Shown: positions 1 through 1,985 of the stretch, piece after piece
Numbering within the stretch: the stretch's first letter is position 1
Layout: each line of letters opens with the position of its first letter
Source of the DNA: Schmidtea polychroa
Lineage: Eukaryota
DNA length: 64,000 nt
NCBI GenBank assembly: GCA_044892525.1
Contig: CM097888.1
Location: forward strand, 73,904,001 to 73,968,000
Direction: 5' to 3'
Translations under genes and position numbers: made by a program
Notes under the pieces: generated by a model
Told to the model about the DNA's origin: nothing
The model's database searches: none
The model's input: the letters and a program-made list of their open reading frames with translations, nothing else

Positions 1-1985
1 GGCTCGAATATCCGTTGTTTATATTTGATTTTTATCAGGTAATCATATTCTAAATTAGAACTAATTAATGAAAAATAGCTTTTACCGGCATCCAACAAAA
101 CGATAATTTTTTTTTCATTACTGATAATCACTCTTTCGTCATCTGGGGATTTTCGATAAATTGTTATTGACCCGTTTTGAACTCCAAGAATCACACGATT
201 CGATACATTCTTAAGGGGAATTATTTGATTCTCTGTTTGAAACAATGTCCATTTATTTTTCATTATTGTGCCATTATCATACATCGCATTTTCGTAGTAA
301 TTAACCGTTATTGTATAATTTGAGTTCATTTTGAGATTGTAATACCGAGTGTAAGCCTTTCGCATGTTTAGAATATCCACAAAATTTTGAAATATGACCT
401 GCACCTTTACTCTTTCTACGGCTACCCAATACACATCTATACCATTCATTATCGGCTCAATTTCCACGGTATTCCATAATTCGTTAGTTTGTATTATAAT
501 TCGAATTTGACTATTAAACTTTTCAAGCGAATCTGATTCATTCTGCTTTATGATCCATGGATACTTGAAGTTAACTTTTAATTCTCGTGCCGCATACGTA
601 TTTCTGTCATAATTCAAAACAATGAAAGGTGTGAACGGGTCTAACACGTTGCTAATTTCTATTTGCTCCATTATTTCGCACTGATAAGTCCAAACAATAT
701 TTGTAAACGTGGAATAAATATCGATCTTGTCCCATAAGGGTATTTTTGTTATCGCATATGGTAAATCCATTCTCATCCCTTTTACCCTTGTCATCATCAT
801 TAGCACGACTGTTGTGAATAGCACTCTGTTAAGATAACTGATTGGAACTGGATTTTTGGTGAATTTTTGTTGAATTTTTGTATCCGCCTTCTCTTCATTT
901 CGTTTCGATCGTAATGGATATCTTTCTTCGTCATTTTCCGGGACCAATTTACAACGATTGGCATGAACTATTATAGGATTTGCCTTTTTACTCCTAAACG
1001 GTAATAACTTCAAATTTGTTTCGGTTGTATCACACACTTTATATGGCCCTTTAAATGGTCTCTGTAACTTTGGAGACATACCTTTGAGTGGTTCTGGTCT
1101 GTTAAGATACACTAAATCTCCAATTTTTATTCCATGAGGTCGTGTTTTCTTATCGTAGGCTTCTTTGTACTTCTCTTGATTATGTTTTATTGTTAATCCG
1201 GCTTTTGTCCAAACCGACTGTACCCTCTCTTGCATTATCGCATTATACTCGGGTACTTCCATATATTGAGTAACGGGTGATTGGAAGTTTAGATCTATCG
1301 GCATGTTGTTTCGTCTTAAGTACATTAAATAAAAAGGTGTCTCTCCCGTACTTGGGTTGACAGCATTTCTATATGCAAACAAACAAGGCTTTATGTAGTC
1401 GTCCCAATCTCTCTGTTTGCTATTTACATACGACGAAATCATATTTATCAATGTGCCATTAAATCTCTCGACTAAACCATCGGTTTGTGGATGGTAGGGC
1501 GAAGTATTCAACTTCCAGATTCCGAATAACTCGGTGATTGATTTAAATAATTCGCTTTGGAAATTTTTACCTTGATCGGTTAATAACTTTTTTGGGGTAC
1601 CATATCGGAAAATAATGTTCTCTACAAATATTTTTGCTACTGTATCAGCCTTTTGATTTGGTATGGCGTAAGCTTCCGGCCATCTTGTCAAATAATCACA
1701 AAATACTACGATGCATTTATTTCCTTTTATTGTTTCAGGTAACGGCCCAACAATGTCCATTGCAGTCATCTCCATTGGTGCGGTTGGAACAGACATTGGT
1801 TTTAAAGGTACTTTAATTTTATTGCCTGTATTTCTTCGAGTTATACATATCTTACAATTTTTGCACCAATCTTTTACGTCTTTTTCCATCATTGGCCAAT
1901 AGTACTTCATTTTCAGTCTTGATAAAGTTTTTCTAGCGGACAAGTGTCCTCCTAGGGCTCCATCATGATATTGCATCAACAGTGA
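1..1985 (-). CDS. pol: Integrase part of Pol plus a C-terminal extension of at least 300 aa; frame open to the window edge, so absent from the ORF track
   Basis: Manual translation: HHCC (QYHDGALGGH...CKIC), catalytic D/D/E (AMDIVGP, LLTDQG, GLVERFN), GPY/F motif (RPFKGPYKV); no stop from 1979 down to 1. Confidence 0.95.

Follow-up and report, generated by a model that had tools for sequence, protein, structure and literature searches.

The single open reading frame of a family of Ty3/gypsy retrotransposons in Schmidtea polychroa continues beyond integrase into a second membrane protein, here called X, which comprises an internal signal-peptide-like segment, an ectodomain, a transmembrane (TM) helix and a short tail. 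This architecture is well supported and we hold it with high confidence. A copy of the element lies on the minus strand of the window, by which we mean the whole 64,000-nucleotide stretch of contig CM097888.1 (73,904,001–73,968,000) analysed here. The original prediction of a second surface protein co-translated with Pol is borne out by the in-frame fusion in most scored copies, by a signal-like segment in five families, and further by the TM anchor with its tail, by purifying selection and by sequons kept between families. X is in fact co-translated with Gag and Env too, not with Pol alone; unbroken copies are one ORF.

Organization of the element and its frame beyond integrase

All features of the element are given on the minus strand. 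The readable part of the 5' LTR (9820–10793), matched to the 3' LTR, is followed by a primer-binding site (9794–9812), which we take to be tRNA-Trp-like, and by Gag with three CCHC knuckles (7605–9633; Pfam Retrotrans_gag 2.4e-8, zf-CCHC), the start region of which is in a different frame in this copy. A Bcl-2-like domain occupies the Gag/Env junction (6655–7020), and a first internal signal-peptide-like segment, SP1 (6535–6612), leads into a class III-like fusogen ectodomain of the gB/chuvirus type (4915–6534; Pfam PF24664 Monjiviricetes_fusion 4.1e-89, match 7635–4306) and an Env TM segment placed by hydropathy (4828–4914). Protease, reverse transcriptase and RNase H (1976–4351; aspartyl protease 5e-7, RVT_1 1.3e-33, RT_RNaseH 1.2e-39) precede an integrase (900–1997) with H2C2 (Integrase_H2C2 3.5e-19), rve core (2.1e-11), a GPY motif at 1049–1041 and its C-terminal end. 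The Pfam order PR-RT-RH-IN, with paired LTRs, primer-binding site and polypurine tract all present, is that of a Ty3/gypsy LTR retrotransposon of the Metaviridae type, and the placement of the Env between gag and pol is that of the GAG-ENV-POL gB-type errantiviruses.

The Bcl-2-like domain lies immediately ahead of the Env signal peptide and has weak PDB matches only: Bcl-xL/Bcl-2 account for 45 of the 48 PDB rows at E ≤ 10, with a best E of 0.72, and a Pfam scan of 6655–7020 gave no match. It has a dN/dS of about 0.3, and a GGW-type motif is found in lineages A, D, F, G and H of this genome (A being the family of the window copy). Elsewhere in the window, an 81-base LTR stretch (10407–10487) recurs 27 kb away at 37377–37457 with 75% identity and is perhaps an old related LTR fragment. 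Two ORF remnants at 15688–17047 (+) resemble, by eye, a decayed DNA transposase, and a 254-aa ORF with a YIDD motif at 38987–39751 (+) is, also by eye, probably a remnant of a Penelope-like or LINE reverse transcriptase.

The frame had been noted to stay open past integrase, and in the window copy it is indeed stop-free from 1997 to 3, up to the window edge: VHANRCK (968–948) and RYPLRSKR (923–900) are followed by YLNRVLFTTVVLMMMTRVKG (836–777) and then by 258 residues. The second internal signal-peptide-like segment, SP2 (777–836), has a hydrophobic core, a predicted cut after V-K-G and counterparts in families B–E. The X ectodomain (1–776) is cut by the window edge, beyond which stalk, TM helix and tail follow, and in the sequence left of the window start the frame extends a further 85 codons. 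The sequons NES 542, NYT 320, NGT 275, NVS 209 and NGS 176 are all located exactly where they were placed. The claim of richness in N-glycosylation sites stands as to their positions, which are conserved, but not as to their count; at least five were reached in 13% of 2000 composition shuffles, and sequon number was rejected as evidence.

The window copy itself is dead: its frame shifts near 9600, 7620, 4330 and 1990, and about 200 bases left of the window start the part of X that codes for the TM is interrupted by a 13.3-kb Polinton-like element (CM097888.1 73890493–73903799). The insertion has a 6-base target duplication, AGTAGT ends and 3.4-kb terminal inverted repeats that are 98.6% alike. 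It codes for an adenovirus-type protease (7e-7), pieces of a family B polymerase (1.5e-14), a RING ORF per repeat and capsid-like ORFs named by eye only; an integrase ORF was not seen within its 13.3 kb. As they lie between the terminal repeats of the inserted element, the genes for RING, polymerase and protease were rejected as retroelement cargo. The 3' LTR of the retroelement lies 3.5 kb beyond the insertion, about 17–18 kb left of the window start, and shows 3 mismatches in 974 bases to the 5' LTR; the insertion is therefore young. Long polymerase-like ORFs of a similar kind lie beside or inside other retroelement copies (L056/L057 at C1:160.5 Mb, and L107), and the nesting of polymerase-bearing elements in these retroelements may be recurrent.

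Leftward extension had been expected to reveal the end of the protein and of the element. It did lead to the 3' LTR, and TM and tail are present in other copies, but the window copy's own C-terminal end was rejected as the natural tail, its last stretch being encoded by the Polinton-like element. For this reason the natural end of X was read from other copies. Single natural copies of families A–E are each one ORF, of 3,329, 3,346, 3,334, 3,419 and 3,437 aa, respectively, with the order Gag-Bcl2like-SP1-Env-TM-PR-RT-RH-IN-SP2-X-TM-tail in unbroken copies, and the same open-frame lengths repeat many times among copies. A family A copy spans 16.5 kb with LTRs of 990 bases. From hydropathy and conservation, X has the layout of a type I membrane glycoprotein: the signal-like segment, a sequon-bearing ectodomain of ~270 aa with three repeats, a Thr-rich stalk, one TM helix of about 31 residues and a short tail. 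The identity of X between family A and the other families is 33–61%.

Closure of the frame right after integrase was not observed in most scored copies. In all 12 copies closest to the window copy, a single open frame covers both the integrase end and the hydrophobic segment, and the frame from integrase to SP2 is open in 24/30 scored loci (families A, B and decayed copies) and in 10/12 of family D, these being loci of the best-scoring matches of two protein searches and thus biased to intact copies; two of the six misses among the 30 start at a partial match.

Several copies depart from the standard arrangement. L058 and L061 are internally deleted, with most of Pol gone and Env and X retained (in L061 as one 1,433-aa frame), and L020 is missing the integrase end ahead of X. 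Families D and E have an extra ORF of 486–496 aa downstream of the polyprotein, and lineage G one of about 790 aa (L083–L087, L097, L099); Pfam gave no match for the two of these ORFs that were scanned. No ORF longer than 110 aa was present in the 1.9–5 kb after the polyprotein in the A, B and C copies examined.

Homologs, selection and fold of the terminal protein

A profile search of 1.84 billion proteins returned four matches, all unnamed singletons (P0004, P0005, P0006 and P0007). P0004 (8e-22) is complete, with signal, TM and tail, and ends in STLV; P0005 ends in VTQV, and in P0006 the end of an integrase runs on in fusion with signal and ectodomain. No homolog came from word-index searches with X, whether at near or longer lengths, nor from scans of metagenome and viral contigs. 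A host gene as source of X was not found: the own-genome matches of P0002, P0003, P0004 and P0006, taken as best candidates only, look like element copies, being repeated and with long ORFs.

The suggested comparison of dN/dS across copies shows purifying selection on the X ectodomain, with Nei-Gojobori values of 0.17 for families A and B (bootstrap 0.11–0.25) and 0.33 for D and E (0.25–0.45); the pairs A-C, B-C and A-D are near saturation and were left out. The corresponding values for the Env ectodomain are 0.04 and 0.065, so that X evolves 4–5 times faster, as expected of a host-facing protein. The A-B dS of X (1.1) is like that of Env and integrase (1.2–1.3), and X has therefore long been co-inherited with the element. 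Three to four sequon positions are kept across families, in agreement with the predicted conservation. Aligned sequons are found at residue 188 in A–E and P0005 (the NGT site), at 210 in A, B, E and P0004, at 171–173 in A–D and P0005, and at 99–102 in A–E.

SP2 shows 30–52% pairwise identity between families, with an 11-residue Kyte-Doolittle peak of 2.07–3.01. Its hydrophobicity is moderate in families A (2.48) and D (2.07), and that of Env's own signal is 2.68–3.35. Small residues at -3/-1 were recognized by eye in all five families (VKG, VKG, ASG, NAG and VNA). A hydrophobic core and small -3/-1 residues kept despite low identity are the behaviour of a signal peptide. We infer from these sequence features that X is cleaved by signal peptidase and glycosylated.

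The ectodomain is built of three repeats of ~90 aa each. The limits of repeat 1 (492–773) and repeat 2 (237–503, including sequons NYT 320 and NGT 275) are approximate; repeat 3 (1–245, and past the window edge) resembles repeat 2 (2 versus 3 scores 30.4, 1 versus 2 23.2). Against a host FN3 profile of 28 domains (30 loci, two with stops removed), hhalign scored repeat 1 at 22.5 (best of 30 column shuffles 15.1, probability 24%) and repeat 2 at 25.9 (best shuffle 13.8, probability 53%), both also above the reversed-profile control. Repeat 3 scored 12.2, within the shuffle range, and by itself does not match FN3. FN3-like units from outside proteins gave a profile score of 21.9 versus 14.7 that is not independent, as they were picked by the motif itself. 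The host FN3 HMM scored single X sequences mostly within the shuffled range, the exception being P0006 (10.5 versus 6.5 bits), and the Atlas feature scores to FN3 neighbours, 0.82 for X and 0.90 for P0004, are leads only.

Pfam scans of X and its homologs returned nothing over cut-off, fn3 included, and PDB sequence searches with family A X, P0004 and P0006 gave no meaningful match. AlphaFold2, given either a 3-row alignment or a single sequence with two repeats, reached a mean pLDDT of 34 in both cases with only the signal and TM helices confident, and Foldseek found nothing at E ≤ 0.001 with these models. The ectodomain had been described as beta-rich; the strand pattern of the two low-confidence models agrees with this, but a reliable structure was not obtained. 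From the profile comparisons we consider the X repeats probably FN3-like.

The post-integrase slot and its tail in other lineages

The Env motif pattern occurs at 694 sites in this genome versus 0 for the control, and further lineages were read from 20 of the first 100 Env sites listed, several of them too decayed or truncated. In lineage G the integrase is followed by a signal, one FN3-like unit, a stalk and a TM, and in lineages F and H by ankyrin repeats and then a signal, unrelated cysteine-bearing ectodomains and a TM. With repeats 25.9 kb apart enclosing a 4,732-aa ORF in lineage F, and a BIR-pattern ORF downstream in lineage H, both are of the size of the planarian Burro elements.

Outside this genome, integrase is reached in seven of nine long proteins with a gB-type Env. 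By hydropathy, five of these seven end in signal, ectodomain and TM, or six if the TM of P0010 is accepted by eye; P0012 reaches integrase without this terminal module. An X-like stretch was recognized in P0008 (domain E 7e-5, search of 9 proteins), and in an RT tree the outside polyproteins fall on several long, separate branches. Judged from sequence, the post-integrase slot for a signal-ectodomain-TM protein is general, and the ectodomains are unrelated between lineages. They vary in size from three repeats down to about 100 aa and in sequon number from 0 to 11, a variation that speaks against a single conserved receptor. P0008, P0010, P0011, P0012, P0014 and P0015 contain two or three aspartic-protease-like domains, one of which is located after integrase and ahead of the second signal. 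In P0015 and P0016 the terminal ectodomain consists of a small cysteine-rich module that has no relation to the FN3-like one.

The tail of X ends in [ST]-x-[VIL], which we take to be a class I PDZ ligand motif, in seven of the eight lineages of this genome (background 0.025): ETTV in A, ETRL in C, ETWV in D, ETFV in E, SSRI/NSRI in F, SSLV/STLV in G and ATLV in H. The seven lineages form three deep groups and thus represent at least three independent cases. In family A, ETTV or ESTV is present in 12/16 full-length copies and lost in the window copy. Family B is without such an end, yet near-identical open copies exist; among outside proteins with TM and tail the class I motif is found in 3/8 only. 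In family C a PPxY, presumably a late domain, lies beside the PDZ-type end. The X tail is accordingly described here as a putative class I PDZ-type ligand.

Possible roles of X and relation to known systems

As the hydrophobic segments alternate (signal, Env, TM, Pol, signal, X, TM), the ribosome would thread the chain through the ER membrane with Gag in the cytosol, Env in the lumen, Pol in the cytosol, X in the lumen and the tail in the cytosol, provided that a less hydrophobic stretch (peak about 2.1) downstream of the Env TM stays out of the membrane. Env and X would be freed by signal peptidase, and the protease of the element would trim Pol, membrane-tethered at both ends. With this layout assembly would follow an unusual route, Gag and Pol being carried on different cytosolic loops of a polyprotein that crosses the membrane several times. 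X would be a glycosylated surface protein of type I, produced 1:1 with the fusogen and made up of about three FN3-like domains on a Thr-rich stalk. By its ectodomain it would bind a partner exposed by a neighbouring cell or by a target cell, and through the PDZ-type tail it would come to lie, together with Env and the tethered Pol and Gag, where cells touch or at sites of budding. X would on this account be a putative accessory attachment or positioning partner of the fusogen, a reading that we regard as about evenly balanced.

Topology and processing would be the same if X were host-modulating cargo rather than an entry factor, i.e. a captured receptor- or adhesion-like surface protein that works in the producer cell as a decoy or a modulator of signalling. 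The Atlas neighbours of P0004 (FNDC4/5, cytokine receptors and sidekick-like proteins) and the free swapping of terminal ectodomains between lineages fit such cargo. Other host-control domains are carried by these elements, the Burro cargo being Bcl-2-like, BIR and ankyrin, and a PDZ-type tail suits signalling scaffolds as much as budding sites. We nevertheless think this rather unlikely, since no host source gene appears among the best-scored own-genome matches and the fixed slot and 1:1 production with Env fit a particle component.

Purifying selection across about 270 aa of ectodomain, with sequon positions and three repeats kept down to about 20% identity, makes it improbable that SP2, TM and tail are the essential parts (a Pol tether with late-domain or PDZ sorting for assembly) and the ectodomain no more than an exchangeable spacer required for folding and ER exit. 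Such a tether would explain why signal, TM and tail persist although the ectodomains are unrelated between lineages, and the adjoining PPxY and PDZ-type end of family C would suit it, but family B has lost the tail motif. To non-functional read-through, or a chance extension of integrase, we give almost no weight. The absence of a family match, the sequon count within chance and the broken window copy would be in keeping with it, but it is refuted by a dN/dS well below 1, and the five families, the outside homologs and the conserved TM and terminal motif also speak against it.

If X is an attachment or positioning partner, it may help the element attach to and move between cells. A second surface protein, under selection, variable between lineages and fixed in its slot, is a candidate answer to how gB-type retrotransposon fusogens find target cells, a question testable in planarians, where there are hundreds of recent copies of these elements. 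A broader picture, which we offer tentatively and as somewhat short of an even chance, is of a whole clade of enveloped retrotransposons that enter cells by means of two glycoproteins encoded in one ORF, a conserved gB-type fusogen ahead of Pol and an exchangeable attachment protein downstream of integrase. Pol would be packaged between them as a cytosolic loop tethered to the membrane, and a PDZ-binding tail would direct assembly to cell contacts. If this is true, the cell type reached by each family would depend on which terminal cassette it had acquired by swapping.

In flavi-, alpha- and bunyaviruses internal signal peptides free several glycoproteins from one chain, and class III fusogens often have separate receptor-binding partners, e.g. 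herpes gB with gD/gH. A link of X to these systems by sequence or fold was not found, and here the enzymes sit between X and Env. To our knowledge, enveloped retroelements have been described with one Env. Host type I FN3 proteins (FNDC4/5, cytokine receptors) share with X a signal, FN3-like repeats, a stalk, a TM and a short tail, but X is without a Pfam fn3 match and the resemblance can only just be detected.

Extra membrane proteins of LTR elements, one of them acting at cell contacts, are known from the sORF2 of MDG1-group elements (PMC11952523, accessible part) and the TM-bearing ORF3s of bdelloid LTR elements (PMC5408684, likewise in part). Those are separate small ORFs replacing Env, whereas X is additional to a full fusogen and lies within the polyprotein. 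GAG-ENV-POL errantiviruses of the HSV/gB type are described from Platyhelminthes, Nematoda and Bryozoa in the available sections of PMC13524379, and, like the window element, have their gB-type Env placed between gag and pol. On visual comparison, the Smed_errantivirus_2 Env row of that source matches family C, and Smed_1 resembles family D; the window family is an exact match to none of the six Env rows. The C-terminal POL halves were examined there for chromodomains, and the words 'fibronectin', 'immunoglobulin' and 'accessory' are absent from those sections.

The closest likeness is to Burro/GYPSM1, planarian giant gypsy-like elements with a single Gag-BCL2-Env-Pol ORF and Env in frame (PMC6431247, in the part available). 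Gag with three CCHC, a BCL2-like motif in the same place, Env and PR-RT-RH-IN are likewise joined there in one polyprotein, though the BCL2 part is weak in the window element. The window family is smaller (16.5 kb, 1-kb LTRs and a 3.3k-aa ORF) than the Burro giants of over 30 kb, and Pfam finds no ankyrin, BIR or MATH match in the window element. It is a compact relative of the planarian Burro elements. No description of a membrane protein after integrase was found in the literature, the accessible texts of PMC6431247 and PMC13524379 included; figures or Repbase could annotate a TM. What was already known is thus the single Gag-BCL2-Env-Pol ORF (PMC6431247, same part), and what appears to be new here is the terminal membrane protein after integrase. 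The Burro-sized elements of this genome (the 4,732-aa ORF with ankyrin; BIR in H) likewise end in signal, ectodomain, TM and tail, and published Burro-type polyproteins too may end in an unannotated membrane protein.
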